Shown here: positions 6,050 to 29,641 of the stretch, in pieces
How the letters are laid out: each line of letters starts with the position of its first letter
Numbering within the stretch: position 1 is the stretch's first letter
DNA from: Acidobacteriota bacterium
Lineage (GTDB): Bacteria > Acidobacteriota > Thermoanaerobaculia > Multivoradales > UBA5704
Length of the DNA stretch: 29,641 nucleotides
Direction of reading: 5' to 3'
NCBI GenBank assembly: GCA_040005235.1
Contig: JBDTZG010000060.1
Location: forward strand, 1 to 29,641
Made by a program: the position numbers and the translations under genes
The notes under the pieces: generated by a model
What the model saw: the letters and a program-made list of their open reading frames with translations, nothing else
Told to the model about the DNA's origin: nothing
Database searches by the model: none

Positions 6050-6063
6050 CCTAGGCGACCTGC

Positions 6064-11110: not shown

Positions 11111-11127
11111 CGCTTAAGTTTCGTGTC

Positions 11128-11445: not shown

Positions 11446-11993
11446 GGTTCTACCTCCGAGACAGGTGAGTCTGCGCCGGGAGCCCCGGACGGAGCCGCAG
11501 GAGGTTTACGCGCGACCACCGTAGCGGCGACCACCGCGACCAGGAGCAGCAGGCCGACGATCTCGAACTGCAACAGGTAGCGACCAAACAGGTCGCGGGC
11601 GAACTCGCGGATCGAGACGAACTGTTCCGTCAGCACTCCGGCGTTCCGGGGTTGCGCGGCCCGATAGAGCAGCGGCACCACCAGGCCGATGAACGCGCCC
11701 GCGCCGAGCAGGGCGACCCAGCGGTGGACCGTCTGCCCTTCCTGCTGGTGCTCTTCCTTCGAGATGTTCAAGAGCATCAAGACGAACAGGAACAAAACGA
11801 CGATCGCGCCGGCATAGACCAGCACCTGGAGCGCGCCAATGAACGGCGCGCCGAGCAGCACGAACATCACCGCGAGCGAGAACAGCGTGACCACCAGGCT
11901 CATAGTCGCGTAGACCGGGCTCTTGTGGGTTACCACCATCAGCGCCGACCCGAGCGCCAGCGCGGCAAAGATCAGGAAGATCGCGGTTTCCAT
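11442..11993 (-). CDS. nuoJ: NADH-quinone oxidoreductase subunit J
   Basis: LQVLVYAGAIVVLFLFVLMLL, LF..YLL.FE.VG.LLL. Confidence 0.95.
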   Translation of the reverse strand: METAIFLIFAALALGSALMVVTHKSPVYATMSLVVTLFSLAVMFVLLGAPFIGALQVLVYAGAIVVLFLFVLMLLNISKEEHQQEGQTVHRWVALLGAGAFIGLVVPLLYRAAQPRNAGVLTEQFVSIREFARDLFGRYLLQFEIVGLLLLVAVVAATVVARKPPAAPSGAPGADSPVSEVEP

Positions 11994-13025: not shown

Positions 13026-13034
13026 CGCGCGCCT

Positions 13035-14654: not shown

Positions 14655-14684
14655 GCGGGTTCTTTCTGTCTCGATCCAGGAATC

Positions 14685-15971
14685 TTACGCAGCGGCGAAA
14701 TAGCGGCGATGCGGCACGGGGCAGGCGTGCTCGCTGATGTGCTGTTCGATCTCGTCGCGGAACTTCTCGACCAGCGAGCGCACCGGGCCGATCGCGGCGT
14801 CGCCGAGCGCGCAGAGCGAATTGCCGCCGACGTTTTTAGAGACGGAGTAGAGCAGGTCGGCGTCGTTCGGATGGCCGTGCCCGGACTCGATGCGGTGGAG
14901 GATGATCTCCATCCAGTTCGTCCCCTCGCGGCAGGGTGTGCACTGACCGCACGACTCGTGGGCGAAGAATTTCGCCAGTCTTGAGGCAGCGCGCACCATG
15001 CAGGTCGTTTCGTCCATCACGATCACCGCGGCCGAGCCGAGCATCGAGCCGGCTTTCGCCAGGGTGTCGAAATCCATCTTGAGGTGCGATTCGGACGCTT
15101 TCAAGATCGGCGCTGAGGCGCCACCCGGAATGAACGCTTTGAGCGTGCCGCCCTTGTACATGCCGCCGCAGACTTCGAGCAGCTCGTCGAACGAGACACC
15201 GAGCGGCAGCTCGTAGGTGCCGGGGCGCTCGACGTGGCCGGAGACGGCGTAGAGCTTCGGGCCGGTGTTCCGCTCATCCGTGCCGATCCCTTTGAACCAG
15301 GCGGCGCCGCGGTTGATGATGTGCGGCACGTTGCACAGCGTCTCGACGTTGTTGATCACGGTGGGGCAGCCGAACGCGCCGACCACGGCGGGGAACGGCG
15401 GTTTCACGCGCGGCTGGCCGCGCTTGCCTTCGAGCGACTCCAACATCCCCGTCTCTTCGCCGCAGATGTAGGCGCCCGCCCCCATGTGGACGTACATGTC
15501 GAGCTTCCAGCCGGAGCCCATCACGCTGTCGCCCAAAATCCCCGCCTGGTAGGCCTCGTGGATCGCGGCTTCCAGAATCCGCGCCGCCTTGGTGTACTCG
15601 CCGCGGATGTAGATATAGGTCGTGTTCGCGCCTACAGCGCGGCAGCAGATCGCGCACCCCTCGATCAGCTGGTGCGGGTCGTACTCCATCAGCAGCCGGT
15701 CTTTGAACGTCCCGGGCTCGGACTCGTCGGCGTTGCAGACCAGATATTTCGGCTTGTCAATTTTCGGGATGAAGCTCCACTTCATCCCGGCGGGGAAGCC
15801 CGCGCCGCCGCGCCCGCGGAGGCCGGAGTCCTTGACCGCCTGGGTGATCGCGTCCGGCTCCATCTTCAAAGCCGCTTCGAGCGCCGTATAGCCGCCGTTC
15901 TTCTTATAGCCGGCGACGGTCAAAGCGTCGGGATTGCCGACGTTTTGGGTCAGAGTCTTCTCGAAGGCCAT
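14685..15971 (-). CDS. nuoF: NADH-quinone oxidoreductase subunit F
   Basis: GLRGRGGAGF, NADESEPGTFKDR, GAGAYICGEETG, ESCGQCTPCREG. Confidence 0.97.
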   Translation of the reverse strand: MAFEKTLTQNVGNPDALTVAGYKKNGGYTALEAALKMEPDAITQAVKDSGLRGRGGAGFPAGMKWSFIPKIDKPKYLVCNADESEPGTFKDRLLMEYDPHQLIEGCAICCRAVGANTTYIYIRGEYTKAARILEAAIHEAYQAGILGDSVMGSGWKLDMYVHMGAGAYICGEETGMLESLEGKRGQPRVKPPFPAVVGAFGCPTVINNVETLCNVPHIINRGAAWFKGIGTDERNTGPKLYAVSGHVERPGTYELPLGVSFDELLEVCGGMYKGGTLKAFIPGGASAPILKASESHLKMDFDTLAKAGSMLGSAAVIVMDETTCMVRAASRLAKFFAHESCGQCTPCREGTNWMEIILHRIESGHGHPNDADLLYSVSKNVGGNSLCALGDAAIGPVRSLVEKFRDEIEQHISEHACPVPHRRYFAAA

Positions 15972-16489
15972 TACTTCAACCCTCGCACGATCTCCCGAGC
16001 GCTCTCGGGGGTCAGGTTCTCATGGTAGTCATCGTCGATCATCATCATCGGTGCCGTGTCGCACGAGCCGAGGCACTCGAAGTGGATGTAGGAGCAGCGG
16101 CCGTCGTCCGTCACCTCGTCCTCGCCGACGCCCAGTTCCGCGCGCATCGCTTCGAGGATCTCCTCAGCGCCACGCAGCTGGCACGACAGGTTGTTGCACA
16201 CGCGGATGCGGTGCCGGCCGACCGGCTTCAAGTGATAGAGGTCGTAGAACGTGACGACGCCGTAGACCGTCGAGACCGGAAGATCGAGCTCCGCGGCGAC
16301 CGCGGCGATCACCGGCTCGGCGAGCCAGCCGTCGAAATTGCGCTGGGCGATGTGGAGCGCGGGAAGCAAAGCCGCCTGCGCCGTGGGATACCGCTTGCGG
16401 ATCTCGGCGATCTCGGCCTTGGCGGCATCGGGAAGTGTCGCGAGCGCCAGTTCGGCAACCGAGGCGGTCTGTTCGGCGGTGGCGCTCAA
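15971..16489 (-). CDS. nuoE: NADH-quinone oxidoreductase subunit E
   Basis: ALLPALH.AQ, V..VVTFY, VCNNLSC..RG, ECLGSC..AP. Probable TTG start at 16489 overlapping the nuoA stop; the 460-aa ORF-track version is over-extended. Confidence 0.92.
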   Translation of the reverse strand: MSATAEQTASVAELALATLPDAAKAEIAEIRKRYPTAQAALLPALHIAQRNFDGWLAEPVIAAVAAELDLPVSTVYGVVTFYDLYHLKPVGRHRIRVCNNLSCQLRGAEEILEAMRAELGVGEDEVTDDGRCSYIHFECLGSCDTAPMMMIDDDYHENLTPESAREIVRGLK

Positions 16490-16893
16490 CGAAAGGCCTC
16501 CGTGAGGTGGTCCCCGTGCTGCTTCGGGCTCAACATGACGTTCAAGCCGCCCTTGGCCCAGACGTAGGCATAGCCGACGAGGATCAGGCCGACGAACACC
16601 ATCACTGCCCAAAACAGCGGCCAGCCCCCCTCGCGCAGGTGGAGCGCCCAGGGGAACAGAAACGCGGCTTCGAGGTCGAAGATGATGAAGTCGATGGCGA
16701 CCAGGAAGAAGACGATCGACAGCCGTTTGTGAGATCGGTCGAGGAGCGGCAGGCCGGATTCGATCGCGGAGAGGTGGACCGTGCCGCCGCGGATCTGGCT
16801 CTTGCCGAGCAGGTAGGAGAGCATCAGGATCGCGAAACCGACGAACATCGCGATGCCCAGCGTCAAGAGGATCGGATAGTACTGCGAGGGCAC
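16486..16893 (-). CDS. nuoA: NADH-quinone oxidoreductase subunit A
   Basis: ESG, FFLVAI.FIIFDLE..FLFPWA, Y.W.KGGL; GGAGGA RBS before GTG. Confidence 0.93.
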   Translation of the reverse strand: MPSQYYPILLTLGIAMFVGFAILMLSYLLGKSQIRGGTVHLSAIESGLPLLDRSHKRLSIVFFLVAIDFIIFDLEAAFLFPWALHLREGGWPLFWAVMVFVGLILVGYAYVWAKGGLNVMLSPKQHGDHLTEAFR

Positions 16894-16907
16894 TTAGGTC
16901 TTCCTCC

Positions 16908-16938
16908 CTAGGATCTCTCACCGAAGATCCGCAGCTCT
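16908..16938. repeat. 31-bp sequence duplicated at 20359-20390, containing GGATCT-N8-AGATCC
   Basis: CTAGGATCTCTCACCGAAGATCCGCAGCTCT versus CTAGGGATCTCCCACCGAAGATCCGCAGCTCT. Confidence 0.85.
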
Positions 16939-17039
16939 TAGAACTCTCCCCGGAGGCGCCCGAACCCGCAAGCTCAACCGCGCCATTCCCCCAGGTGCCA
17001 GGCACCCGTTTCATGGCCAGGAGCTCGAAGTTCGATCGC

Positions 17040-17057
17040 TCGTGAAGGATGTCACAA
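17040..17057. promoter_or_regulatory. Putative Rex operator upstream of nuoA
   Basis: TCGTGAA-GGAT-GTCACAA matches TTGTGAA-N4-TTCACAA at 12 of 14 positions; upstream of an operon ending in rex. Confidence 0.7.
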
Positions 17058-17075
17058 GCTCCCGGGCGGGGGCAA
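17046..17075 (-). promoter_or_regulatory. Possible sigma70-type promoter of the nuo-rex operon
   Basis: TTGCCC-18 bp-CATCCT with TGn extension; the -10 lies inside the Rex box. Weak consensus match. Confidence 0.3.
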
Positions 17076-17094
17076 GCGGGGGGGCGGGGCCTTT

Positions 17095-17176
17095 CCTGGG
17101 AGCGCCGAGCACCAGCTCGGCACTCGCAGCGGCCGAGATCGCCAAAGCAGCCGAGCTGCTGCTCGGCGCTCCCAGG
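17095..17176. repeat. REP doublet (REPIN-like) family C
   Basis: 27-bp inverted arms CCTGGGAGCGCCGAGCA(C/G)CAGCTCGGC with one mismatch, each an internal GCCGAGC-N4-GCTCGGC hairpin, around a 28-bp spacer. Confidence 0.85.
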
Positions 17177-17245
17177 CTTCGCTGCGGAACTTCCACTGCT
17201 ACGCTTTGCGCTGTTTCCCTGCGAAGGTGTATACCCGGAGCCGCA

Positions 17246-20068
17246 ATGCCTTCGAATTCGGAGATGAAGAGCCCCCCGGAAGAGTCTGGAGCGTTCGAGC
17301 TTCTCTGCCTCGATCTCTGGCGCGAGATCTGGAAGCTTGAGGGAGGCGCGCACCAGAACGGACGCTCAGGGTTCGGGCAGCACGGCGTCGATCTTTACGG
17401 CCGGGAAGGGGGCCTCTGGGTCGGAGTGCAGTGCAAGCAAAGGGCGGAGCGGCTCGGTTCGAAGGTGACCGTCCGAGAACTCGACGAGGAAGTTCGGAAA
17501 GCGCTGGATTTCAAGCCCGCGCTCTCGCGGTACATCGTGGCGACCTCGGCCGCTGCGGACGTAGCGGTGCTAACGAGAGCGCGGAAGATTACTGAGGAGC
17601 ACGCCGGAAAGGGTCTGTTCTCGGTCGATGTCTACCCCTGGGAGCGGATCTGGCACGAGATCCACGAGCGGCAAGAGCTGCTCGATCGTGTCCTGCCGAT
17701 CTACTGGCCGAGAACCTCGGGAGCGCCACAGAAGATCAACCCCACCCGCCTGACCCGCGTCGCCGAGAAGCTCTTCGGCCGAGAGACCGAGCTGGCGCAA
17801 CTCGATGCCGCCTGGGCGGATCCGAACATCCACGTGGTCACCCTCGTCGCCTGGGGCGGCACGGGGAAGACCTCGCTGGTCGCGAAGTGGGCGGCGGGGT
17901 TGGAGCTCGGGGGCGCCGATTACTTCGACTGGTCGTTCTACAGCCAGGGCACGCGGGAGGAGGGGTCGGCCTCCGGCGAACCGTTCGTGAACGCGGCGCT
18001 GCGGTTCTTCGGCGGGGAGGAGGAGGGCGAGAAGATCGCGGCGAGTGCGGCGTCCGGGTGGGACAAAGGCGCCAGACTCGCGGCGTTCGTGGCGCGGCGG
18101 AAGGCGTTGCTGATCCTTGATGGAATGGAGCCGCTCCAGTACCCGCCGTCGAATCCGCTCGCGGGGCAGTTAACGGACCTGGGCGTGAAGGCGTTGCTGC
18201 GGGGGCTAGCGGCGAAGAATCCCGGGTTGTGCGTGGTGACCACGCGCTTGAAGCTCGCGGAGCATTTCAACGCCTATCGCGAAACGACAGCACCGGAGTG
18301 GTCGGTGGAACGGCTGAGCACGGTGGCGGGGGTGGACCTGCTCGAAAAGCTTCAGGTGAAGGGGAGCAAGGAAGAGCTTCGAGCGCTCGTTGAGGACGTG
18401 GACGGCCACGCGCTGACATTGAACCTGATCGGAACGTTCCTCGCCAAAGCGTATGGCGGGGATGTACGGAAGCGCGACCGGGTGAAGCTCGAAAAGGCCG
18501 ATGCAAAAGTGCAAGGCGGCCACGCGTTTCGGGCGATCGCCGCCTATGAGAGGTGGTTTGTCAGCGAGGGAGGGGAGGAGGGTGTTCGGCAGCTTGCCAT
18601 GCTTCGGCTAATCGGACTGTTCGATCGTCCCGCAGATGGCGGTTGTCTTGATGCGCTGAGGAAAGAGCCGGCGATCCCGGGCTTGACCGACGCGCTGGTG
18701 GGGCTCGAGGAGGAGGACTGGAATCTTATGATCTTCGCTCTCGCCGAGTGCCGGCTTGTTTCGGCGGGGGCTGGCGGCAGCCTCGACGCCCACCCACTTA
18801 TCCGTGAGTACTTCGCCTGCCAGCTCCGCGAGAACTACCCCGAAGCCTGGCGCGCCGCGCACGGGCGATTGTTTGAATACCTGCGGGACACTACCAAGCC
18901 ATACCAGCCGGGCACGCTTGAAGGCCTCCAACCGCTTTACCACGCCATTGCCCACGGCTGCCACGCGGGCCGGCAGGAGGAGGCACGCGCCGGGGTCTAC
19001 CGGGATCGAATCCAGCGAGGGCAGGAAGCCTTCAGCACGTTCAAGCTCGGAGCGATCGGCGCCGACCTGGGTGCCGTGGCCTGCTTCTTCGATCCCCCTT
19101 GGCGCAGCATCTCGCGCGCGCTCACCGAAGCCGCCCAGGCCTGGCTGCTGAACGAGGCCGGCTTCCGCCTGCGCGCCCTGGGCCGACTGACCGAAGCCCT
19201 GGAGCCGATGCGGGCTGGGTTGCCCATCGAGGTCGCGCGTGAAGATTGGAAGAATGCTGCCGCCCGCGCCTCCAACCTGAGCGAGATGGAGCTGACGCTG
19301 GGCGACGTCTCCGCCGCGGTGCGGGACGCCGAGCAGTCCGTGACCTTCGCCGACCGCAGCGGGGATGCCTTCTTGGCAATGGCGTGCCGCACGGCGTACG
19401 CCGACGCCCTACACCAGGCGGGCCGCCGGGCCGAGGCGCTGGCGCTCTTCCGCGAGGCGGAGGGGATGCAGGCCGAGATGCAGCCCGAGTACCCGCGGCT
19501 CTACTCGCTGCAGGGCTTCCAGTACTGCGACCTGCTGCTCGCCGAGGCCGAGCGGGCGGCGGGGCGGCGGGGCGGGGCAGGAGCGGACGGAGAGGCGCTC
19601 TCGGAGGCGATCCGCGGGGTCGAGGAGCGGGCGGCGCAGATGATGAGGTGGGAGCAGGAGAACTGGCTCCTCGACATCGCCCTCGACCACCAGACCCTCG
19701 GCCGCGCCGCGCTCTATCGGGCGATCCTGGCAGGCTCCGATCTCGCCCCCGCGAGAGCCCACATCGAGCAGGCCGTGGACGGCCTCCGTCGCGCGGGTGA
19801 CTTGCCGCGCCTCCCGTGGGGCCTCCTCACCCGAGCCTGGCTTCTCTCCCGAGAGGGCAACCCCGACGCCGCGCGGGCCTACCTGGCCGAGGCGCAGGAG
19901 ATCGCGGCGAGGGGGCCGATGCCGCTGTTTCTGGCCGATATCGCCTTGCAGCGGGCGCGGTGGTTCGGCGACCGCGAGGCGCTGGCGGAGGCGCGGCGGT
20001 TGATCGAGGTACACGGGTATGGGCGGCGGCGGGAGGAGTTGGCGGATCTCGAAGTGGAGTTGGGGTAG
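17246..20068 (+). CDS. Restriction-endonuclease-like nuclease / STAND NTPase / TPR protein (NLR- or Avs-like, putative defence)
   Basis: N-terminal FE.LC.DL...GRSG..QHGVD...GVQCK (Mrr-like PD-(D/E)xK), FGRE.EL, Walker A GGTGKT, Walker B LLILDGME, GHALTL (GxP-like), TPR-like C-terminus. Start ATG 17246 with GGAG; the ORF-track extension runs through a repeat. Confidence 0.8.
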   Translation: MPSNSEMKSPPEESGAFELLCLDLWREIWKLEGGAHQNGRSGFGQHGVDLYGREGGLWVGVQCKQRAERLGSKVTVRELDEEVRKALDFKPALSRYIVATSAAADVAVLTRARKITEEHAGKGLFSVDVYPWERIWHEIHERQELLDRVLPIYWPRTSGAPQKINPTRLTRVAEKLFGRETELAQLDAAWADPNIHVVTLVAWGGTGKTSLVAKWAAGLELGGADYFDWSFYSQGTREEGSASGEPFVNAALRFFGGEEEGEKIAASAASGWDKGARLAAFVARRKALLILDGMEPLQYPPSNPLAGQLTDLGVKALLRGLAAKNPGLCVVTTRLKLAEHFNAYRETTAPEWSVERLSTVAGVDLLEKLQVKGSKEELRALVEDVDGHALTLNLIGTFLAKAYGGDVRKRDRVKLEKADAKVQGGHAFRAIAAYERWFVSEGGEEGVRQLAMLRLIGLFDRPADGGCLDALRKEPAIPGLTDALVGLEEEDWNLMIFALAECRLVSAGAGGSLDAHPLIREYFACQLRENYPEAWRAAHGRLFEYLRDTTKPYQPGTLEGLQPLYHAIAHGCHAGRQEEARAGVYRDRIQRGQEAFSTFKLGAIGADLGAVACFFDPPWRSISRALTEAAQAWLLNEAGFRLRALGRLTEALEPMRAGLPIEVAREDWKNAAARASNLSEMELTLGDVSAAVRDAEQSVTFADRSGDAFLAMACRTAYADALHQAGRRAEALALFREAEGMQAEMQPEYPRLYSLQGFQYCDLLLAEAERAAGRRGGAGADGEALSEAIRGVEERAAQMMRWEQENWLLDIALDHQTLGRAALYRAILAGSDLAPARAHIEQAVDGLRRAGDLPRLPWGLLTRAWLLSREGNPDAARAYLAEAQEIAARGPMPLFLADIALQRARWFGDREALAEARRLIEVHGYGRRREELADLEVELG

Positions 20069-20410: not shown

Positions 20411-20639
20411 ATGGACTGCGACATCTGTGGAAAAGGTGGTGCCCAGGTCCGGCTCATGACCCCGGAGCTACGGCAAAGGTGCAAACCTTTTGGTGATCGA
20501 GAACGTTCCGGTGGTGGTCTGTACCCAATGCGGAGAGAGCTACCTGACCGCCGAGACCCTGCATGAGATCGAGCGGATCAAGCTTCACCGCAGCAGCTTC
20601 GCGAAGCCAAGAAGCGTCGCCGTGGCCAGTTTCGCGTAA
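20411..20639 (+). pseudogene. YgiT-type zinc-finger (MqsA-like antitoxin) gene with a one-base frameshift
   Basis: MDCDICGKGGAQVRLMT, then after removing one C from CCCC (20460-20463) RSYGKGANLLVIENVPVVVCTQCGESYLTAETLHEIERIKLHRSSFAKPRSVAVASFA*. Absent from the ORF track; an alternative in-frame ATG lies at 20396. Confidence 0.8.
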
Positions 20640-20659
20640 GGGCGGCGATCCCAACCCCG

Positions 20660-20974
20660 AAATTTCCTGGCCCCACCCCAAAATCCGCTGGCCGCGCCCC
20701 AAATCCGCTGGCTGAACCCCAAATCTCCTGGCGGGACTCCAAATCTCCTGGCGGGACTCCAAATCTTCTGGCGGAGCTGGAAATTTGCTGGCTGGACTCC
20801 AGATCTTCTGGCGGAGCTGGAAATCTGCTGGTCGGACTCCAAATATGCTGGTGGAGCTGGAACCAGGAGATTTCAGAGCCCACCAGCGAAGTAGAGGCTG
20901 CGGCCAGGAGATTCCGGCGACGACCGGGAGATTTCGGCTCTGAGCGGCCGAACCGTCGGCGCGTCCGAGATTTC
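20660..20974. repeat. 20-bp period array: about 10 forward units, then 4-5 degenerate reverse units
   Basis: AAAT.(C/T).CTGG-type units start every 20 bp from 20681 to 20841; reverse cores GAGATT(T/C)C at 20867, 20908, 20928 and 20967. Confidence 0.85.
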
Positions 20975-21020
20975 GATCGGCCCCTGGTAGAGTCGCGCGG
21001 CTTTTTCGGACTCCGCTTCC

Positions 21021-21902
21021 ATGATTCCAGGTCTCGCCGCCGGCTCGCTTCTGCTCGTTCTGGTCTCCGCCTTGTCTTGGGCGGGGTTCGATCTGCTGCG
21101 GAAGCTCTTGGCTCGCGAGATCGGTCCCCTCCCTTTGATGGCATTTTTGTGCCTCGCTTCGGCGCCGCCGTTTGCGGTCTGGGCGGCGTTCTCGGGCGGG
21201 TTTTCGGTCGGGCCGGGGTATTGGGTGCCGGCTCTCGGCTCGGTGGCTTTGAACGTGGCGGCGAATCTGCTGTTTCTGGAGGCTTTGCGCACGGGGGAGC
21301 TGTCGGTTGCTGTGCCTCTGCTTTCGCTCACCCCGGCGTTTGCCTCCCTGGTGGCGATTCCCCTGCTGGGGGAGCGGCCCACCTTTTCCGACGCCTGCGG
21401 CATAGCGCTCGTGGTGATCGGGGCGTTCATCCTTCAGGCTCCGACGGGAGACGAGCGGTGGACTTGGGAGTCGATCAAGGCGCGCCGGGGCCTGCGGCTG
21501 ATGGCCGGGACGGCTCTCCTCTGGTCGCTCACCCTTCCGCTCGACAAGCTGGCGGTCACCCGCTCGCACCCGCCGTTTCACGCCCTGGTGTTGAATCTGG
21601 GGGTCGCCTTGGCCGCTCTCGTGATCCTGGCGCAGCGGCGGGAGCTGCATCGCCTGGGCGAGATCCGCAAGAAGCCGCTCGTGTTTCTCGCCGCTCTCGG
21701 CGTCTCTGCGGTCGCCCTCGGCGCCCAACTCGCCGCCCTCCAGACGGTCTGGGTGAGCGTGGTCGAAACGCTCAAGCGGACGATCGGCAACCTCTCCGCG
21801 GTGGTCGTCGGCCGGCTCGCTTTCGGCGAGGCGATCGGCGCGAGAAAGCTCGCCGCGGTGACGTTGATGGCCGGCGGAGTCGCCCTGATTCTGCTGTTCT
21901 GA
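21021..21902 (+). CDS. EamA/DMT family transporter
   Basis: About 10 TM helices in two repeats; ELSVAVPLLSLTPAF..LVA..LLGE and FGE motifs. Confidence 0.88.
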   Translation: MIPGLAAGSLLLVLVSALSWAGFDLLRKLLAREIGPLPLMAFLCLASAPPFAVWAAFSGGFSVGPGYWVPALGSVALNVAANLLFLEALRTGELSVAVPLLSLTPAFASLVAIPLLGERPTFSDACGIALVVIGAFILQAPTGDERWTWESIKARRGLRLMAGTALLWSLTLPLDKLAVTRSHPPFHALVLNLGVALAALVILAQRRELHRLGEIRKKPLVFLAALGVSAVALGAQLAALQTVWVSVVETLKRTIGNLSAVVVGRLAFGEAIGARKLAAVTLMAGGVALILLF

Positions 21903-22153
21903 GCTACGACGGTGCTCGGCGTCGCATTTGCGCGTCCTCTTTTTACCGCTTCGACACACCGGGGATGTAACGCTTCGCGCGCCTTAGGAGCCTCTTGGGT
22001 CGGGTTGAGGAAAACGTCGGGATGAGACGCGCAAGTCCTTATTTCAAAGGACGTTCCGACACTAGAGAAGATTCACTTTCGGGCGTCGGAAGCCTAGGAT
22101 CTAGCGGCAACGTAGATGCCATTGGGCAACCAGCGGGCAACCAGGAGGAAGTC

Positions 22154-22417
22154 ATGGAAAGAGTCGAGATCCGCGAGAAGATCAAGGACATCATCGCCAA
22201 CGTGGCGGGGCTGAAGCGCGAGAAGATCGGCGACGAGGATTCGTTGCGTGACGATTTGGCGCTCGATTCGCTCTCGCTCCTGGAAATAGGCGTCGACGTC
22301 GATTACTCGTTCCAGCTCAGTCTTCCCGACGAGCGCTACAAACAGCTCGCCACGTTGCCGCAGATGGTGGATTTGGTCGAAGCCCGTCTGGCCGAGCTCG
22401 CGCCGGTCTCGGCGTGA
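22154..22417 (+). CDS. Acyl carrier protein
   Basis: AGGAGG RBS; acidic 87-aa protein with the DL.LDSL phosphopantetheine site. Confidence 0.92.
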   Translation: MERVEIREKIKDIIANVAGLKREKIGDEDSLRDDLALDSLSLLEIGVDVDYSFQLSLPDERYKQLATLPQMVDLVEARLAELAPVSA

Positions 22418-23670
22418 CCGGAGGCGCCGGGAACCGCTCGATGACTTCGATCGCGGTGACGGGGCTCGGGCTCGCGACGCCGATCGGCCTCGGTCACGAG
22501 ACGGTCTGGCCGGCGCTGCTCTCCGGCCGGTCGGGGTTCCGGCCCGTCGCGTTGTTCGACACCTCGCGCCACGGCACCCACCTCGGAGCGGAGGTGCAGG
22601 ACTTCGATCCCGCCGCCTGGGTGCGTCGATTGCCCGTCTCCTCGATGGGCCGGGCGTCGCATTTAGCGATCGCCGCGTCGCGCATGGCGCTTGCCGACGC
22701 TGGAATCGATCCGGAGCAGATGACGCCCGAGGCGGCGGAGCGCTTCGGGGTCACTTTGGGCACGACCTCGGGCGAGCCGCTGGAAATCGAGCGCATGTCC
22801 GACCTGATGGTCGGCGACCGGCTCGACGAGCTGGGCGGCGAGTTGGCCGGCCGCTACCCCTGCCATCTGATCGCCGCCCACGTCGCTTCGGAGTTGGGCT
22901 TTGCCGGGCCGAACCAGATGATCCCAACCGCCTGCGCCGCGGGTAATTATGCGATCGCCTTCGCGGTCGAAGCGCTGCTGGCCGGACGTGCCGATCTGAT
23001 GATCGCGGGCGGGGCCGATTCGTTTTCTCGGATGACGTACACCGGCTTTGGCAAGCTCGGCGCGATCGCGCCGGACCTCGTCCGGCCGTTCGCCAAGAAC
23101 CGCAAGGGGATGATCCCGGGCGAGGGCTCAGGCGTGCTGGTGCTCGAACGGACCGAGAGCGCAATCTCGCGCGGCGCTCGGATCTACGCCGAGGTCGCGG
23201 GCTATGGCCTCACCTGCGACGCCCACCACATGACCGCGGCTCACCCGGAAGGGGACGGCCCGGCGCGCGCGATGGAGCGGGCTCTTCGCACGAGCGGTCT
23301 TGTCGCCGGCGACGTTTCCTACGTGAGCGCCCATGGCACCGGCACGCCCACCAACGACAAGCTCGAAACGCTCGCCGTGCATCGGGTGTTCGGTCGCGGG
23401 ACGACGGTGCCGGTCAGCTCGATAAAGTCGATGATCGGCCACACCATGGGCGCGGCCTCGGCGATCGAGGCGGCAGTCTGCTCGCTCGCGATCCACGAGG
23501 GGTGGATACCGCCGACCATGAACTACGACGAGCCCGATCCGGAATGCGATCTCGATTGCGTGCCGAACCAAGCCCGCCAGGTACGAGTCGATGTGGCGAT
23601 GAACAACGCCTACGCCTTCGGCGGTAACAACGCATCGGTGATCTTCCGGAGGCCTCATGCCCCCGCGTGA
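22414..23670 (+). CDS. Beta-ketoacyl-ACP synthase (FabF-like / type II PKS KS-alpha), active triad
   Basis: TACAAG (Cys), AHGTGT (His), KSMIGHTMGA (His), N.YAFGGNN. GTGA overlap with ACP; alternative ATG at 22441. Confidence 0.92.
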   Translation: MTGGAGNRSMTSIAVTGLGLATPIGLGHETVWPALLSGRSGFRPVALFDTSRHGTHLGAEVQDFDPAAWVRRLPVSSMGRASHLAIAASRMALADAGIDPEQMTPEAAERFGVTLGTTSGEPLEIERMSDLMVGDRLDELGGELAGRYPCHLIAAHVASELGFAGPNQMIPTACAAGNYAIAFAVEALLAGRADLMIAGGADSFSRMTYTGFGKLGAIAPDLVRPFAKNRKGMIPGEGSGVLVLERTESAISRGARIYAEVAGYGLTCDAHHMTAAHPEGDGPARAMERALRTSGLVAGDVSYVSAHGTGTPTNDKLETLAVHRVFGRGTTVPVSSIKSMIGHTMGAASAIEAAVCSLAIHEGWIPPTMNYDEPDPECDLDCVPNQARQVRVDVAMNNAYAFGGNNASVIFRRPHAPA

Positions 23671-24901
23671 GGTGGTGGTCACCGGCCTCGGCCTGCTCTC
23701 GCCGCTCGGCGATACGCCGGAGGCGCTCCATGAGGCGTTGCTCGCCGGGGAAGTCGGGATCAAGCCGATCGAGCTGTTCGATCCGAGCCTGCTCACGACG
23801 AAGCTCGGTGGCGAGATCCGACCGTTCGAGCCGCAGCGCTACCTGGGCGAGCGAAATCTTCGGCCGCTCGACCGGACCTCGCGCCTGTTGATCTCAGCCG
23901 CCACCCGGGCGCTCGAAGACGCGGGTTGGACCGAAGAGGCTCGAAACGGCCGCGAGCTGTCGCTCGCCGTCGGCACCACCTATTGCAGCATGCACACGAT
24001 CGGCGAGTTCGACCGCCGGGGCTTGAAACTTGGGCCCAACTACGTCTCGCCGTTCGATTTCGCCAACAGCGTGATCAACGCGGCCGCCGGCCAGACCGCC
24101 ATCTGGCACAAGCTCGCGGGAGTCAACTCCACCCTCGCGGGGGGCGAGGCCTCGGGCCTACAGGCAATCGCCTACGGCGCCGATCTGATCCGCACCGGCC
24201 AGGCCGACATGGTGCTCGCGGGCGGGGTCGAAGAGCTCTGCTTCGAGTCGTCGATCGCCTATTCGCGCGCCGGAAGGCTTGCCGGCGGCGAGGTGGGGAG
24301 CGAAACCAACGGCCGCCCGGTGCCATTCGACCGTGCGCGCGACGGCTTTGCTCCGGGAGAAGGTGCGGGTCTGCTCGTGCTCGAAGCGGCGGAGGTGGCC
24401 GAAGCGCGCGGCGCGAAGATCCACGCCCGCATCGCGGGGAGCGGTGCGGCGTTCGCGCCGGACCGCAATGGTGATTTCGCCGCAGCTCTCTCTCGCGCGA
24501 TCCGCGCCGCATGGACTTCCAGCGGCGCCGAGGGCGGCGCGTTTCTTTGCGTCTCTTCCGGCGCGAGCGGTGCGCGAGAACTCGACGCCTGGGAGGCCGA
24601 GGGGATCGCCCGCGGTCTCGAAGCGGCGGGGGTTTCAGGGCTTCCGGTGACCGCGATCAAGGCGAATCTCGGGGAAGCTTTGGGAGCCTCAGGAGCGTTT
24701 CAAGCGATGAGCCTGATCGCGACGCTCGCCGACGGCCGGATTCCCGGAATCGCCGGGTTGGAATCGACCGACCCAGGATTTCCTCTCACCGGAGTTTCCG
24801 CCGCGTCGCGGGCGTTCGCGACCGCCCCGGGCACCTTGGCGCTCGCGACCGCGATCTGCGCCGATGGTCCGGTGATGGCGCTTTTGCTCGCCGCGCCGTA
24901 G
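23657..24901 (+). CDS. Catalytically inactive ketosynthase homolog (chain-length factor / KS-beta-like)
   Basis: KS-fold motifs (VVVTGLG, PFD..RDG..PGEGAG) but GGEASG replaces the catalytic Cys, and SGASG and GEALG replace the two His. Confidence 0.85.
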   Translation: MPPREVVVTGLGLLSPLGDTPEALHEALLAGEVGIKPIELFDPSLLTTKLGGEIRPFEPQRYLGERNLRPLDRTSRLLISAATRALEDAGWTEEARNGRELSLAVGTTYCSMHTIGEFDRRGLKLGPNYVSPFDFANSVINAAAGQTAIWHKLAGVNSTLAGGEASGLQAIAYGADLIRTGQADMVLAGGVEELCFESSIAYSRAGRLAGGEVGSETNGRPVPFDRARDGFAPGEGAGLLVLEAAEVAEARGAKIHARIAGSGAAFAPDRNGDFAAALSRAIRAAWTSSGAEGGAFLCVSSGASGARELDAWEAEGIARGLEAAGVSGLPVTAIKANLGEALGASGAFQAMSLIATLADGRIPGIAGLESTDPGFPLTGVSAASRAFATAPGTLALATAICADGPVMALLLAAP

Positions 24902-24947
24902 CAAACGGATTAGCCACCTCGAGACTTACACCAGGAGGCGCCACGCC

Positions 24948-26795
24948 ATGCCACGCACACAAGACTGCGACGTCCTGATCCTTGGAGCCGGCCTCGCCGG
25001 ACTCTCGCTCGCACGCCAGCTGCTGCTAGGCGGGGTCGAATCGGTCCTGCTGCTCGACCGCCGCGAGATCCCGCCGAAGAAGCAGAAGGTGGGCGAGGCG
25101 ACGGTGCAGATGAGCGGCTATTACTACTCGCGGGTGCTGGAGATGGAGGAGCACCTGCTGCGGAAGCACTACTTGAAGTACAACCTCCGCTTCTGGTGGA
25201 AGACGCCCGGCTTCGAGGATCGCGCTGAAGGGTACAGCCAGTCCTACCTGCGCCAGATCTCGAACATCGCGACCTATCAGCTCGACCGCAACGTGTTCGA
25301 AGAAGGGCTGCACGAAGCCTGCTCGGCCGATCCCCGCTTTTCGTTCGCGGCGCCGATCTCGTCGCTCGAAGTGGATCTGAACAACGCGACCGAGATTGCC
25401 GACGGACGCCACGCCTACCGCTTCGTCGATGCCGCGGGCGAGGCGGTCGAGGGGACCGCACGCTGGGTGGCCGATACCTCCGGCCGCTGGCGCTTCTTGG
25501 CGAAGAAGCTTGGCCTGATGACCGAGAGCCCGATCCGCCACGGTACTTCGTTCGTCTGGGTGGAAGGGTTGCTCGACGCCGAGAAACTGACCGACCTCTC
25601 CGAGCCTGAGATCCGCAAGCGGCCCGACCGCCGGCAGACCGGCCACATGCCGTTCTTCCTTGCGACCAACCACTTCTGCGGCGACGGCTACTGGTTCTGG
25701 ACGATTCCGCTCCACGGGAAGACCAGCCTCGGCTTGGTCTACGACGTCGAAAAAGTCGATCGCAAAGAGGTCAACACCGCGGAGAAGCTGATCGACTGGG
25801 TCTGCCGGACGTTTCCGGCGTTCGCCCGCGACCTGCCGCACAGGAAGCACTTCGACCATTCCGGTTTCGTCAGCTTCGCCCATGACGTCAAGCAGATGAT
25901 CTCTCCCGATCGCTGGGCGCTCGCGGGCGAAGCGGGACGTTTCTCCGATCCGCTCTACAGCCCGGGCGGCGATTTGATCTCCACCCACAACACGCTGATC
26001 ACGGACGCGATCTTGCGGACGCCGACCCAGGAGCTGTTGACCACCAAGGCGCGCCTCTACGAAACGCTCGCCCGCGCGATCTATGACGGGTACGTGCCGA
26101 GCTTCGCCGTTTCGTACAACACGCTCGGCGACCAGGAGGCATTCTCGCTCCGCTATTCGTGGGAGCTGGCGATCTACTTCTTCTTCTACGTCTTTCCGTT
26201 CATCAACGACCTGTTCACCAACTTGACGTTCCTGCCGATGTATCTGCGGCGGTTCTCGAAGTTGGGGCCGATGAATTCGTCGCTGCAACGGTTCCTCGCC
26301 GATTTCCAGCGCTGGAAGCTCGGGGCGAACCTGCCGCCGCCTTCGGCCCCGGTGTTCTTCGAGTTCTCGACCATCGGGCCGCTCAAGGAGTCGCAGGAGT
26401 ATTTCTACGAGATCGGCGTCAACCCGATCGAGGCGCGCGACCTGCTCGACCGGGCGCTCTCCCGGCTCGACATTCAATCGCGCCACGCCGTCGCCCAGGT
26501 CGCCTCGACGGTGCTCGGTATCGAAGACGTGCTCAAGAGCAAGGCGTTCGCCGAGCGGGTCGACGTCAACAACCTCCGCTTCGACGTGGACGAGCTGGCG
26601 CAACTCTGGGAAGAAACGAAGGACATCCCCGGCGAGATGGATTGGGGGTTCTGCCCGATGGCGCTGCGCCGCGCGCTGGGGCCGCCGGTGCCGCTCGACC
26701 AGCGGCAGCCGAAGTCGGATCCTATTGACGCCATGGAGGCCATGACGGCCAGCCCAGCACTCGAAGAACGCGCGGCGGAGCTTTCCGTCGCGTGA
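24948..26795 (+). CDS. Flavin-dependent halogenase family protein
   Basis: GAGLAG FAD motif, KVGEAT, Lys in YLKYNLRF, WFWTIP (WxWxIP), GEAGRFSDPLYSPG; AGGAGG RBS. Confidence 0.8.
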   Translation: MPRTQDCDVLILGAGLAGLSLARQLLLGGVESVLLLDRREIPPKKQKVGEATVQMSGYYYSRVLEMEEHLLRKHYLKYNLRFWWKTPGFEDRAEGYSQSYLRQISNIATYQLDRNVFEEGLHEACSADPRFSFAAPISSLEVDLNNATEIADGRHAYRFVDAAGEAVEGTARWVADTSGRWRFLAKKLGLMTESPIRHGTSFVWVEGLLDAEKLTDLSEPEIRKRPDRRQTGHMPFFLATNHFCGDGYWFWTIPLHGKTSLGLVYDVEKVDRKEVNTAEKLIDWVCRTFPAFARDLPHRKHFDHSGFVSFAHDVKQMISPDRWALAGEAGRFSDPLYSPGGDLISTHNTLITDAILRTPTQELLTTKARLYETLARAIYDGYVPSFAVSYNTLGDQEAFSLRYSWELAIYFFFYVFPFINDLFTNLTFLPMYLRRFSKLGPMNSSLQRFLADFQRWKLGANLPPPSAPVFFEFSTIGPLKESQEYFYEIGVNPIEARDLLDRALSRLDIQSRHAVAQVASTVLGIEDVLKSKAFAERVDVNNLRFDVDELAQLWEETKDIPGEMDWGFCPMALRRALGPPVPLDQRQPKSDPIDAMEAMTASPALEERAAELSVA

Positions 26796-26808
26796 GCGGG
26801 GGACCGCG

Positions 26809-28248
26809 ATGACTTTCGCGCCGGGGCTCGAACAAGCGTTCGCGACCGACCCGGGAGAGCTGGCCGGGGTGCCGCTCGAAGTCGAGGGCGACCTTCCCGG
26901 TTACCTCCAGGGCACCTGGATCGCGAACGGCCCGGCGAGCTTCGGTCGCGGCGATTTCCGTTATCGCCATTGGCTCGACGGCGACGGCCGCGTGATCGCC
27001 GTCCGCTTTCCCGGCCAGGGCCGCGCACCGATCGCCACCGCGCGCTACGTCGGCACCGCGAAGCGGCTGGAAGAAGAGAAGGAAGGCCGGGCGCTCTACC
27101 GGGCGTTCGGCACCGCGTTTGCCGGCGACCGGTTGATCCGCGGCGTGGCGCTCGCCTCGCCCGCGAACGTCAGCATCGTCCCCTGGCAGGGGCGCCTGAT
27201 CGCGAGCGGAGAGCAGGGTTTGCCCTACGACCTCGATCCCGCAACCCTCGAAACCCGCGGCGAGTACACGTTCGGCGGCAAGCTCAACCCGCTCTCCCCC
27301 CTCGCCGCGCATCCGAAGCTCGACCCCAACACGGGAGAGCTGATCCACTTCGGCGCCTCGTTCGCCGGAGCGCAACCGAGCGTCACCCTCTACCGTTTCG
27401 CCCCGGACGGGGCGCTCGCGCTCCGGCGCCGGATTCCGCTCGACCGCCCGGCGGTGCTCCACGATTTCGCGGTCTCCGACCGGTTCTGCATCTTCCACCT
27501 GTCGCCGTATGTGATCGAAGTCGGCCCGCTCTTGTCCGAAGGCAAGTCGCTGTTCGAATGCCTGGTCTGGCGCGAAGAGCTGGGCAGTCGTCTGGTGGTG
27601 GTCGAGCGCGAGACGGGCGAGGAAGTGGTGACGATCCCGCTCGGCGGCGGCCACTGCCTGCATCTCGCAAACGCCTGGGATCGCGTCGAAGAGGGCAGCG
27701 ATCGGCTGACTCTGGATCTGCTGGAGCTCGACCAGCCGGCTTACGAGCAGTATCAGCCGCTCCCCGAGCTGTTCGACACCGCACCGCCCGGTCGCCTGGT
27801 GCGCCTGGAGATCGACCTCGGCTGGGGGACGGTCGTCTCGCGCCAAACCTGCGCCTACGAAGAATCCCCCGATTTTCCCGCCATCGATCCCCGCCGCTTC
27901 GCGCGACCGATCGACGACGTCTGGATGCTCGGCATCTCTCATACCGGAAAAAGGGGACCGAAGTTCTTCGACCGCATCGTCCACCTCGACTGGAATCGAA
28001 GCGAAGGACCCCACGATCTATGGATCGCCCCTCCGAGCATCTACCCCTCCGCCGAGCCGGTGATCGTTCCCGATCCCGAGCGAGAGACGGGGGGAGTGTT
28101 GCTCTGCCCTTTGTACGACGCCGAGCGGGAGGCGACCGAATTGGTGGTCTTCGACGCCTGGAATTTGGTCGCAGGACCAAGTGCGCGAATTAAATTTCCC
28201 GCGCCGCAACACCTATGCTTTCACGCGACGTTCGTCCCGACGGAGTAG
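26809..28248 (+). CDS. Carotenoid oxygenase (RPE65/CCD/lignostilbene dioxygenase) family protein
   Basis: VEG.LP..L.GT...NGP, HWLDGDG, four candidate Fe-binding His (AHPK, LHDF, HLAN, FHATF), DFP.ID, EP..VP. Confidence 0.9.
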   Translation: MTFAPGLEQAFATDPGELAGVPLEVEGDLPGYLQGTWIANGPASFGRGDFRYRHWLDGDGRVIAVRFPGQGRAPIATARYVGTAKRLEEEKEGRALYRAFGTAFAGDRLIRGVALASPANVSIVPWQGRLIASGEQGLPYDLDPATLETRGEYTFGGKLNPLSPLAAHPKLDPNTGELIHFGASFAGAQPSVTLYRFAPDGALALRRRIPLDRPAVLHDFAVSDRFCIFHLSPYVIEVGPLLSEGKSLFECLVWREELGSRLVVVERETGEEVVTIPLGGGHCLHLANAWDRVEEGSDRLTLDLLELDQPAYEQYQPLPELFDTAPPGRLVRLEIDLGWGTVVSRQTCAYEESPDFPAIDPRRFARPIDDVWMLGISHTGKRGPKFFDRIVHLDWNRSEGPHDLWIAPPSIYPSAEPVIVPDPERETGGVLLCPLYDAEREATELVVFDAWNLVAGPSARIKFPAPQHLCFHATFVPTE

Positions 28249-28783
28249 GGTTGGCCTGATTGGGCGGAGGGTTCCTCGCAGGAAGCGGGGCGGCTTGAGC
28301 TTGGGGGAGTTCGGCAACCCGGGCTGCAAGGTATTTCTTGCCCCGCTCGACGGAGTCGAATAGAGCTTGCGCGTAAACATGCCTGCGCGACTCGAGATAG
28401 CCCTGTAACACAGGACTCCTCTCGTATCTATCGGCGATGGCTTTGTCCCAACACTCCATCGATTCTTTAGGTAAATTCTCGCCCTGTAACGAGACATGTT
28501 CGTATAGATCGCCGAACATCTCGCAGGCTAGCATCACTTGATCAAAGTTGGGGTCGCCATCACTGAGAGTTTTTCCATCGTAGAGATACTCCCTGATCTT
28601 TGGATTGTCGAACATCAAACGAATAGTCTCCAACGAATGGGAGAAAATGTTTGTATGGGCGCCGGCCCTGGTGTCCTTGTTGATTTGCCGGATTTGGTAG
28701 GAGACGAAGAAAAATCCAGCAATTGCCACGAAGACTCCCGCTACCGAGGAAGCGGCTTGCACCTGATCGGGCCACGATGTCAT
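28190..28783 (-). CDS. Hypothetical protein with N-terminal TM helix, lower GC than neighbours
   Basis: AGGAG RBS; TM segment followed by YQIRQ and a helical domain; AT-richer codons; tail overlaps the oxygenase 3' end. Confidence 0.7.
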   Translation of the reverse strand: MTSWPDQVQAASSVAGVFVAIAGFFFVSYQIRQINKDTRAGAHTNIFSHSLETIRLMFDNPKIREYLYDGKTLSDGDPNFDQVMLACEMFGDLYEHVSLQGENLPKESMECWDKAIADRYERSPVLQGYLESRRHVYAQALFDSVERGKKYLAARVAELPQAQAAPLPARNPPPNQANPTPSGRTSRESIGVAAREI

Positions 28784-29039
28784 GACTTCACTCCTGAGAG
28801 TTGTTCACACTCTAACGAAGCAGATGTATTCGCGTCAACACGGTGCACCTGTGCGCGCTACGGCTTCTATTCTCTGAGCCTGCGGCTGCTCGTTGCATGA
28901 TCGTCAGGGACTTCGGAATGCCCGGCCGGATTACACCTACAAGGTCGCTAACGACGAGGCTGGGGAGCTGCTGGCGGAGCTTGGGTAGATCGGGACGCCA
29001 GCGCAAAACCCGCGGCGGCAGGACCTCGTCGGGAGCCCC

Positions 29040-29641
29040 GCGAGCGGTTGAAACCGCTCGCTACGTTACGACGTCCCTGGCGGGACGTGCCTGGCACATT
29101 GCTCAATCCTCCGACTCGGCCTCGTCGAAGGAGATGCCGTGTTTCGACAGGAGGTCTCGGCGTTCGGTCTGGAAGGTTGAGCTGCGATGGTGCCGCTCTT
29201 GATTCAGGACATAGGTCCGGACTCGCTCCAGCACCGAGGTGCTGACTGAGAACGCGGCGTACCCCTCCTGCCAGGCGAAATGATCCGGGATCCTCCTGGC
29301 CTCGTTGATCCAGCGCGAAGAGCTTCCCTTGATTGCCTTCACCACAGCCGCGACCGAAGGGTGCGGTCGCAGATCGACCAACAGATGAACGTGGTCGGGC
29401 ATGCCGCCGATCGCGAGAAGTAGTCCACCCTGGTCGCCCACCACGCCTCCGACAAACGGGTACAGCTCGCGAGCCAGCTCAGGGCGGATCCAAGGTGTGC
29501 GGTGCTTGGTGGCGAAAACGATATGGAAACAGAGCCGCGCATAAGTTCTCGGCATGCACCCAATCCTCTCGATCTCTCGACGAACCTAACATCTCGTCCC
29601 GCCAGGGACGACGTAACATAGCGAGGGTTTTCAAACCCTCG
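29040..29641. mobile_element. IS200/RAYT-like element: Y1 transposase between inverted double-hairpin ends (family A)
   Basis: Left end 29040-29088 and right end 29596-29641 are approximate reverse complements, each with two hairpins; the right end reaches the window edge. Confidence 0.85.
29103..29555 (-). CDS. tnpA: IS200/IS605-family HUH (Y1) transposase
   Basis: HIVFATKHR, PDHVHLL (HUH), IKGSSSRW, F.WQEGY.AFSVS, YVLNQ (catalytic Tyr). Confidence 0.95.
   Translation of the reverse strand: MPRTYARLCFHIVFATKHRTPWIRPELARELYPFVGGVVGDQGGLLLAIGGMPDHVHLLVDLRPHPSVAAVVKAIKGSSSRWINEARRIPDHFAWQEGYAAFSVSTSVLERVRTYVLNQERHHRSSTFQTERRDLLSKHGISFDEAESED

Follow-up and report, generated by a model that had tools for sequence, protein, structure and literature searches.

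The closest described counterpart of the genes presented here most probably comes from anammox bacteria, in which a fatty acid synthase (FAS)-type heterodimer of a ketosynthase and a chain length factor is assigned to ladderane biosynthesis. The main text of a preprint describes the structure of the Brocadia fulgida heterodimer and its complex with a C8-loaded acyl carrier protein (ACP), reports Val or Thr in place of the catalytic Cys and Asn, Glu or Cys in place of the histidines in the dead subunit, and states that the heterodimer decarboxylates malonyl-ACP and prefers C6-C8 chains in crosslinking (10.64898/2026.05.19.726425). According to the same text the heterodimer genes sit with genes for a B12 radical-SAM enzyme and a homologue of phytoene dehydrogenase, the cluster (Cluster I) corresponds to KustE3603-3608 of Kuenenia and includes amxACP, and no genetic system exists in the ladderane producers (10.64898/2026.05.19.726425). 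A paper on amxFabZ calls this cluster exclusive to ladderane producers (PMC10139942). Here we describe a related gene set in a stretch of 29,641 nucleotides (the window) from an Acidobacteriota bacterium (assembly GCA_040005235.1, contig JBDTZG010000060.1), in which genes for an ACP, a ketosynthase (KS) and a chain-length-factor-type homologue (CLF) are followed by genes for a flavin-dependent-halogenase-like FAD protein and an oxygenase of the carotenoid-cleavage family (CCD). Our favoured reading is that the window carries the core of a conserved lipid or polyketide-like pathway of Acidobacteriota. This pathway extends beyond the five genes, because a PlsC-type acyltransferase and a CrtI-like gene co-occur with the FAD protein in all 12 sampled genomes that have it.

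The window is the whole 29.6-kb contig C48 of the source genome (G000; 6.2 Mb in 140 contigs), and the closest related records, found by a locus search with the FAD protein, are metagenome-assembled genomes of Thermoanaerobaculia. Six genes on the + strand at positions 21021-28248 are concerned:

21021..21902, + strand, EamA/DMT-family transporter gene, 293 amino acids (aa), about 10 hydrophobic segments by hydropathy, GC content at third codon positions (GC3) 0.83
22154..22417, + strand, acyl carrier protein, 87 aa, with a DSL serine motif (PF00550, 34 bits)
22414..23670, + strand, active-type beta-ketoacyl synthase (KS), 418 aa (ketoacyl-synt N and C, 149 and 130 bits)
23657..24901, + strand, predicted inactive KS homologue of chain-length-factor type (CLF), 414 aa (ketoacyl-synt N and C, 126 and 40 bits)
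24948..26795, + strand, flavin-dependent-halogenase-like protein, 615 aa (Pfam DAO 34.5 bits, Trp_halogenase 27.5 bits)
26809..28248, + strand, carotenoid-cleavage-oxygenase (RPE65) family non-haem iron dioxygenase (CCD), 479 aa (PF03055, 317 bits)

A preliminary description of this DNA had noted five co-oriented and closely linked genes, and this holds: the last five all lie on the + strand and either overlap or stand at most 46 bp apart, with overlaps of 4 bp (ACP/KS) and 14 bp (KS/CLF) and gaps of 46 bp (CLF to FAD protein) and 13 bp (FAD protein to CCD). An AGGAGG stretch at 22143-22148 lies 5 nt 5' of the ACP start codon (ATG at 22154). A scan of positions 20000-29641 for promoters and terminators found sites no more numerous than in shuffled sequences.

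The KS carries an intact Cys-His-His triad, as first described, at C174/H307/H343, and all three residues are invariant across 36 orthologues. With 392.5 bits it exceeds the cut-off of the FabF subfamily model PRK07314 (387 bits); it does not pass the FabF equivalog, and on the model for AmcF of the cispentacin pathway it reaches 244 bits, under the cut-off of 325. Among solved structures it scores 466 bits with chain 9s5h_B, to which it is about 52% identical as counted on the printed alignment, then 345 bits with ishigamide Iga11, 321 with Thermus FabF, 243 with the actinorhodin KS and 205 with AntD. The earlier statement that the neighbouring KS homologue lacks the triad also stands, since a BLASTP alignment of KS and CLF places E164/G302/E340 at these columns. 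Of 42 CLF orthologues, 36 have Glu, 5 Ala and 1 Phe at the Cys column; the first His column is Ser in 18, Gly in 15 and Ala in 9, and the second is Glu in all 42. Neither Cys nor His was ever seen. Judged by these predicted active-site residues, the KS would be of the catalytically active type and the CLF catalytically dead. Among solved structures the CLF matches 9s5h_C best (224 bits), which has Val, Asn and Glu at the triad columns according to the printed alignment and the KS/CLF column mapping. An AlphaFold model of the CLF (pLDDT 88) has the thiolase/KS fold with a Z score of 55 to FabF, and FabF, actinorhodin and ishigamide entries are among the matches listed in the fold search. The ACP matches NCBIfam ACP models under their cut-offs in every case, and its orthologues sit 5' of the KS in related loci.

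We infer that PDB entries 9s5h and 9s5i most probably represent the Cluster I FabF2/FabFmut heterodimer of Brocadia fulgida, because their chain make-up (9s5i includes an 80-aa ACP chain) and the residues at the triad columns match the description in the preprint, the main text of which does not contain the codes. On this identification the acidobacterial genes share with anammox Cluster I an active KS, a dead KS homologue and a dedicated ACP in a FAS-like context, with 9s5h_B and 9s5h_C as the best PDB matches of KS and CLF, the pairing being predicted here from sequence. A gene of the CrtI/phytoene-dehydrogenase family belongs to both sets, as compared at the level of the family. Several features differ. 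At the Cys column the window CLF has Glu where the anammox subunit has Val or Thr; the window ACP scores 27 bits with 9s5i_E against 46 bits with an ordinary ACP; and no FabZ or B12 radical-SAM gene is present in the window or between ACP and CCD in related loci, although no genome-wide search was made for them. An acyltransferase, a halogenase-like enzyme and a CCD belong to the acidobacterial set besides, and none of the three is listed for Cluster I in the main text of the preprint (10.64898/2026.05.19.726425). The FabF-related KS/CLF pairs with a discrete ACP from the ishigamide (Iga11/Iga12) and cispentacin (AmcF/AmcG) pathways are likewise similar, as seen from the scores above. Unlike these, the present set has no dedicated ketoreductase (KR) or dehydratase (DH), its tailoring enzymes are different and its KS is closer to 9s5h than to Iga11.

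The preliminary description had called the cluster type II polyketide synthase (PKS)-like. The presence of KS, CLF and ACP agrees with this, and the Cys-His-His KS with a CLF lacking the triad is indeed a feature of the aromatic minimal type II PKS, yet the label is too specific. In aromatic type II PKSs the CLF has Gln at the Cys column, whereas here it is Glu; the KS scores in the order 9s5h_B, FabF, actinorhodin KS; and the window holds neither a cyclase nor an aromatase. For these reasons the KS/CLF pair is FAS-like and not aromatic-PKS-like. A product of the aromatic polyketide kind, or a halogenated aryl-polyene pigment similar to xanthomonadin or flexirubin in which the CCD serves in late tailoring or turnover, is accordingly judged very improbable, even though KS, CLF, ACP, halogenase and acyltransferase are the parts list of aryl-polyene clusters and correspond to the gene set found here. 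A SnoaL-like cyclase family (f40) in 3 of the 80 related loci and a Cytophaga flavoprotein among the fold matches of the FAD protein (see below) also speak for such a product. Against it, the other aryl-polyene features, namely KR and DH, aryl starter genes (ammonia lyase, chorismatase, AMP ligase) and the LolA/MMPL genes for export, are all lacking in the window and among the scanned recurrent neighbours. The source genome contains a second KS/KS-like pair (C134:31907-34347, locus L090), 34% and 32% identical to the window KS and CLF and close to a MacB/FtsX-type transporter gene; a FabF-like gene on contig C9 is 37% identical to the window KS.

The FAD protein has an N-terminal FAD domain with GAGLAG, K77, WFWTIP and RFSDPLYSPGGD. 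The GxGxxG and WxWxIP motifs of the preliminary description are confirmed as GAGLAG (residues 13-18) and WFWTIP (249-254), and G13, G15, G18, W249, W251, I253 and P254 are invariant among 23 family members, as are K47, K77 and the motif RFxDPLYSPGGD. The WxWxIP motif is thought to block monooxygenation, and in this protein it aligns with the same motif in PltA and ChlB4. K77 aligns with the second Lys of the KKFGAAW stretch of PltA in a low-identity phmmer alignment; which PltA lysine is the catalytic one is presumed here. Sequence matches to solved structures are weak, the best being PltA (E 1.5e-5), followed by ChlB4, RadH, Bmp2, CtcP and PltM. For the AlphaFold model built on the family alignment (pLDDT 82.8, pTM 0.85) the top Foldseek entries are CtcP, PltM, CmlS, ChlB4, RadH, PltA, FasV, CndH, Mpy16 and Bmp2 (E 7e-20 to 4e-16), together with the uncharacterised Cytophaga flavoprotein 3nix. 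The first monooxygenase appears at rank 38, and all entries listed above it are flavin halogenases except 3nix. The protein thus has every sequence and fold hallmark of flavin halogenases examined, with K77 as the candidate for the catalytic lysine, and halogenase activity is predicted on this basis.

In the GxGxxG motif, the invariant Lys, WxWxIP, the second FAD motif and the fold, the protein is similar to PltA, PltM, CmlS, CndH, ChlB4, Bmp2, Mpy16 and CtcP. It differs from the halogenases of carrier-protein-bound or small phenolic substrates in its identity of 15-20% to the solved enzymes, in its CCD partner, in the lack of a pyrrole, phenol or tryptophan substrate pathway nearby and in a family-specific helical C-terminal domain of about 250 residues (approximately residues 340-585) with its own invariant motifs (W405, E406, L407, F416-P417-F418 and N420-D421-L422). 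Atlas neighbours of similar length that carry Trp_halogenase occur in Cyanobacteriota, Pseudomonadota, Bacteroidota and Actinomycetota. The large C-terminal domain and the low identity, along with the missing reductase partner in the window, would also fit a flavin-dependent monooxygenase, hydroxylase or epoxidase that acts on the chain either before C=C cleavage, to prepare it, or afterwards, giving a product without halogen. The best NCBIfam matches, at noise level, are to non-halogenase relatives (LodB at 29.5 bits, geranylgeranyl reductase at 29.8 bits). This alternative, which would alter only the fourth step of the pathway proposed below, is unlikely without being far-fetched; the invariant WxWxIP motif, the invariance of K77 at the position of the PltA Lys-Lys pair and the halogenases filling the fold search above rank 38 all argue against it. 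The source genome (C49:7026-8609, locus L089) and eight other sampled genomes also encode members of a second halogenase-like family, which are shorter (about 530-620 aa) and about 28-30% identical, match the family profile with E of about 1e-70 and have no adjoining CCD.

The CCD matches PF03055 over residues 21-477 with 317 bits, against a cut-off of 27. The four-histidine oxygenase of the preliminary description is borne out, as the iron ligands H168, H218, H285 and H472 are invariant in 68 orthologues and the first three align with the matching motifs of Synechocystis apocarotenoid oxygenase (ACO). That enzyme is also the best match among solved structures (180 bits), lignostilbene dioxygenases being more distant (108 bits), and the CCD shares with it and with other bacterial CCDs the RPE65 family and four His ligands along the full length. 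In contrast to ACO, it is encoded in a FAS-like operon and not in a carotenoid or retinal context. All NCBIfam equivalogs are under their cut-offs, the best being NOV2 (151 against 650 bits) and the lignostilbene dioxygenase LSD (143 against 800 bits), and therefore the CCD is not a lignostilbene dioxygenase equivalog, as judged from these sequence scores. In lignostilbene dioxygenases a Tyr/Lys pair binds the 4-hydroxyphenyl group; in the CCD a Gly precedes the conserved Glu (G134-E135), at a position presumably occupied by Lys in LSD.

The arrangement is conserved in related bacteria. A search with the FAD protein gave 1844 proteins with E ≤0.001 among 7999 scored candidates, and the named relatives belong mostly to Thermoanaerobaculia, Pyrinomonadaceae and other Acidobacteria. 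In contigs sampled at one genome per species, relatives are present in 311 stretches, of which the best 80, nearly all titled Acidobacteriota, served as the related loci; gene presence was scored by tblastn with the window proteins. Of the 75 loci that extend 1 kb or more downstream, 69 have the CCD directly 3' of the FAD gene, on the same strand and no more than 600 bp away; the exceptions are L012, L016, L026, L028, L037 and L062, the CCD of the last being 4.6 kb away. In the 40 loci that have 8 kb or more of flanking sequence on either side, KS is found within 9 kb in 25, CLF in 25, ACP in 23 and all three in 22. This linkage is far above chance, because the arrangement recurs in many species, and it supports the five genes as one conserved functional unit; the refuting condition named in the preliminary description, a halogenase or oxygenase gene not kept by KS/CLF in other genomes, does not hold. 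Modelling the FAD protein (residues 1-520) in complex with the CCD gave run scores of 0.38, 0.00 and 0.01, which speak neither for nor against an interaction.

Where a CLF lies 5' of the FAD gene (41 loci), the two adjoin with less than 300 bp between them in 21 and are 0.6 to 6.9 kb apart in the other 20. Neighbouring reading frames were called crudely under guidance of GC3, clustered over all loci and named from one representative of each family. Two families recur in the CLF-FAD interval: a CrtI-family flavoprotein, often in two copies (TIGR02734 at 165 bits, under the 238-bit cut-off), and a protein of about 570 aa with a PlsC-type acyltransferase domain in its C-terminal half. FG-GAP/ASPIC proteins, a 310-aa protein without a family, a LuxR response regulator, a patatin-like lipase and others are inserted less regularly. 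In L084, from the same family as the source genome, ACP, KS, CLF, two CrtI-like genes, the acyltransferase, the FAD protein and the CCD form a single operon in this order. Apparent CLF-FAD fusions among the crude calls were rejected as read-through of open frames, since CLF and FAD lie in different frames. The transporter gene 5' of the ACP, with weak NCBIfam matches to the DMT family, has homologues in 18 of the 80 loci, 5' of the ACP in 17 of the 18, and is probably an accessory or export gene of the cassette.

To see the set at the genome level, one evenly drawn sample of 401 Acidobacteriota genomes was used, in which G024, G049 and G152 count solely as genomes without an orthologue. An orthologue of the FAD protein (E ≤6e-229; next best 9e-89) is present in 12 of the 401 (about 3%), namely:

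G000, G357, G353, G336, G033, G100, G345, G124, G369, G176, G180 and G005

A CCD orthologue (E ≤3e-110; next best 1e-48) occurs in all 12 and in G385, and an acyltransferase orthologue (E ≤2e-92) in all 12 and in G215. The CLF orthologue (at least 311 bits, over a FabF background of at most 276) occurs in 10 of the 12 and in G215 (75% complete) and G108 (83% complete). The CrtI-like gene was searched in 20 genomes of the sample. With the source genome included it is present in 12 of 12, the 11 other FAD-positive genomes and G215 having an orthologue of 51-70% identity; G040 and G108 have weak matches (34% and 36% identity), and no match at E ≤1e-30 was found in G385, G119, G131, G186, G024 and G002. 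In the source genome the CrtI-like gene lies on contig C138 (72% identical to the representative from L012) and the acyltransferase gene on contig C4 (51% identical) beside FG-GAP genes, whereas the two are neighbours in 9 of the 12 FAD-positive genomes. The genes also co-occur where they are no longer linked. Five genomes of a single family have a block of a CHASE2-cyclase, the CCD, three FG-GAP genes, a TPR gene, ACP, KS and CLF, and in them the FAD gene stands with the CrtI-like gene, the acyltransferase, ArsA-like ATPases and a kinase of the ABC1/UbiB type. This FAD block is hundreds of kb from the CCD block or on another contig in four of these genomes; in G180, FAD and CLF are about 2 kb apart and on opposite strands. 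The CrtI-like desaturase and the acyltransferase therefore belong to the gene set even when unlinked, as in the source genome, and the cluster described earlier as compact is not so functionally.

In one acidobacterial family a CHASE2-sensor adenylate/guanylate cyclase lies directly 5' of the CCD (L081:2167-4011, L083:1-1890), and three FG-GAP/ASPIC (CRTAC1-like) genes and TPR proteins stand between the CCD and ACP-KS-CLF, a context faintly suggestive of a connection with signalling or the cell surface. Kinases of the ABC1/UbiB atypical type (f25/f28) recur by the acyltransferase or near the FAD gene (L020, L022, L040, L051, L060 and L085:396-3752). Another protein, f15, recurs by the cassette either 5' of the ACP or 3' of the CCD (L027, L031, L055, L076 and L080); its copy in the source genome (L091:7845-8741, - strand) has a HEAFH (HExxH-like) motif and C-terminal hydrophobic helices. 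Families f8, f15, f16 and f22 match no family in Pfam and NCBIfam scans.

CrtI and RPE65 are classically families of carotenoid enzymes, which raises the question of whether the substrate is an isoprenoid. A carotenoid or squalene-derived polyene would in that case be tailored and cleaved by the CrtI-like enzyme together with the FAD protein and the CCD, while ACP, KS, CLF and the acyltransferase would merely supply and attach a special fatty acyl group, for which acylated C30 carotenoids such as staphyloxanthin are a precedent. The apocarotenoid oxygenase as best solved match of the CCD, the precomputed Lycopene_cycl match on some homologues of the FAD protein, a squalene-synthase-like gene adjoining a mevalonate-pathway gene in the source genome and the order of two CrtI-like genes and an acyltransferase in L084, which resembles CrtN/CrtP/CrtO, are all in its favour. 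We nevertheless consider it rather unlikely. The operon starts with ACP-KS-CLF, which suggests that the chain itself is the substrate, the CrtI-like gene is under every carotenoid equivalog cut-off, and SQS_PSY, glycosyltransferase and cyclase families are all missing among the scanned recurrent neighbour families. In the source genome none of 11 CrtI-family matches is over the curated cut-off and the SQS_PSY matches are just two, the squalene-synthase-like gene and a 32-bit match; because of this, a canonical C40 carotenoid pathway is not evident in it by sequence comparison, but the substrate may still be a polyene derived from squalene. Two further CrtI/CrtO-like genes lie on contig C135 amid amine and aromatic catabolic genes.

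Returning to the acyl chain as substrate, we think it possible, though not quite probable, that the gene set builds a dedicated acyl chain, desaturates it, moves it onto an acceptor, probably halogenates it and cuts it at a C=C bond, a sequence in which we infer every chemical step. The full set would comprise the ACP, KS, CLF, one or two CrtI-like desaturases, the PlsC-type acyltransferase, the halogenase-like enzyme and the CCD. In the first step the KS/CLF heterodimer would build a chain of set length on its own ACP, with ketoreduction, dehydration and enoyl reduction presumably borrowed from the housekeeping FAS. The CrtI-like enzyme or enzymes (on C138 in the source genome) may then introduce C=C bonds, and the acyltransferase (on C4) may move the chain from the ACP to an acceptor, most likely a lipid. 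In the fourth step the halogenase-like enzyme, going by its motifs and fold, would chlorinate or brominate the unsaturated chain, and in the fifth the CCD, going by its family, would cleave a C=C bond, yielding aldehydes or ketones. The FAD protein and the CCD, whose genes are almost always adjacent and in the same orientation, are proposed to act as a pair on the unsaturated chain, and the gene order of the contiguous operon of the L084 type fits the proposed sequence of steps. The preliminary description had suggested that oxidative cleavage might release the product, as no thioesterase was visible. None is found in the window; the suggestion is weakened by the 570-aa acyltransferase, present in 12 of 12 genomes and within the operon in relatives, which would provide an ordinary release route and therefore an answer to the missing thioesterase.

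A more specific version would be a non-isoprenoid, pseudo-carotenoid lipid pathway, in which a FAS heterodimer of the ladderane type builds the chain, the CrtI-like enzymes turn it into a conjugated polyene on a membrane lipid, a flavin halogenase of a new class marks it and the CCD releases a (halo)polyenal as a signal or protective lipid fragment. We regard this version as rather unlikely. If it is true, the cassette would be a sister of the anammox KS/CLF and phytoene-dehydrogenase module, and a genetically more reachable model for that module before cyclobutane formation.

Several observations weigh against the acyl-chain pathway. The FAD protein is as distant from the solved halogenases as stated above, and its Pfam Trp_halogenase match contains no stretch that passes individually. 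No gene for a flavin reductase, KR, DH, enoyl reductase or thioesterase is found within the window. The source genome has a squalene-synthase-like gene, and CrtI-like and CCD enzymes normally act on isoprenoids. KS or CLF is lacking within 9 kb in 15 of the 40 fully flanked loci, and no CLF orthologue was found in the FAD-positive genomes G345 and G124 (93% and 96% complete); therefore, the chain-building genes may be an optional feeder and not an obligate part. The related genomes are also kin, so that the co-occurrence counts overstate independence.

Further features of the window are:

20454..21959, - strand, 501-aa reading frame antisense to the DMT gene, rich in Arg, Gln and Pro
17042..20068, + strand, 1008-aa AAA_16/TPR protein 5' of the cassette
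5408..17353, - strand, divergent complex I run of NuoE-like (with an N-terminal extension of about 300 aa), F, G, H, J, K, L, M and N genes
5408..6094, Rex-type redox-sensing repressor gene, after the complex I run
28190..29641, region directly 3' of the CCD

The 501-aa frame has no family and a poorer codon-position GC pattern, so that it is most likely spurious and not a gene; its lying opposite the DMT gene explains the strong AT skew at positions 21001-22000. The 1008-aa protein has paralogues on contigs C104 (67%) and C46 (51%) and short fragments of 72-78% on C3, C94 and C122, and so it is not specific to the locus. The complex I run includes no recognised NuoI or NuoA-D within the window. 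On the 3' side the CCD is followed by an orphan 197-aa reading frame in a stretch of lower GC (0.565) and by an IS200/Y1 transposase near the contig end; the 197-aa frame matches no family in the Pfam and NCBIfam scans. In the close relatives L004 and L006 the CCD is followed by an f15 gene (270-300 aa) and genes for an RRM protein, chorismate synthase and RNase II, and these genes are found in the source genome at the end of contig C116 (L091:3569-8741). It looks as if an insertion or assembly break lies directly 3' of the cassette at 28190-29641.

The preliminary description did not recognise the combination from any characterised pathway, and we found none in the literature searched, which included no paper linking the CCD, chain length factor, halogenase and CrtI-like families. 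A type II PKS cluster catalogue merely lists Acidobacteria among the phyla with KS-CLF matches (PMC10132072), and a preprint on flavoaffinin concerns a different aryl-polyene cluster (10.1101/2025.02.08.637243). New here are the genome-level co-occurrence counts, the recognition of the unlinked acyltransferase and CrtI-like genes as members of the set and the comparison of the CLF triad columns with the anammox preprint.

Acidobacteriota rank with the most abundant bacteria of soil, and little is known of their lipids and secondary metabolites. Relatives of the cassette occur in 311 species-level genomes, and the set joins enzyme families for which no joint action has been reported, namely a FAS-type KS/CLF pair, a CrtI-like desaturase, a remote flavin halogenase and a CCD. 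Given the probable identity of 9s5h, the KS/CLF pair is the closest relative found of the heterodimer assigned to ladderane biosynthesis, and since the ladderane producers have no genetic system, the acidobacterial set could serve as a comparative handle. If the chain is indeed halogenated and cleaved, two well-studied families of enzymes would gain new substrates, and soil may contain halogenated lipid aldehydes of a new class.

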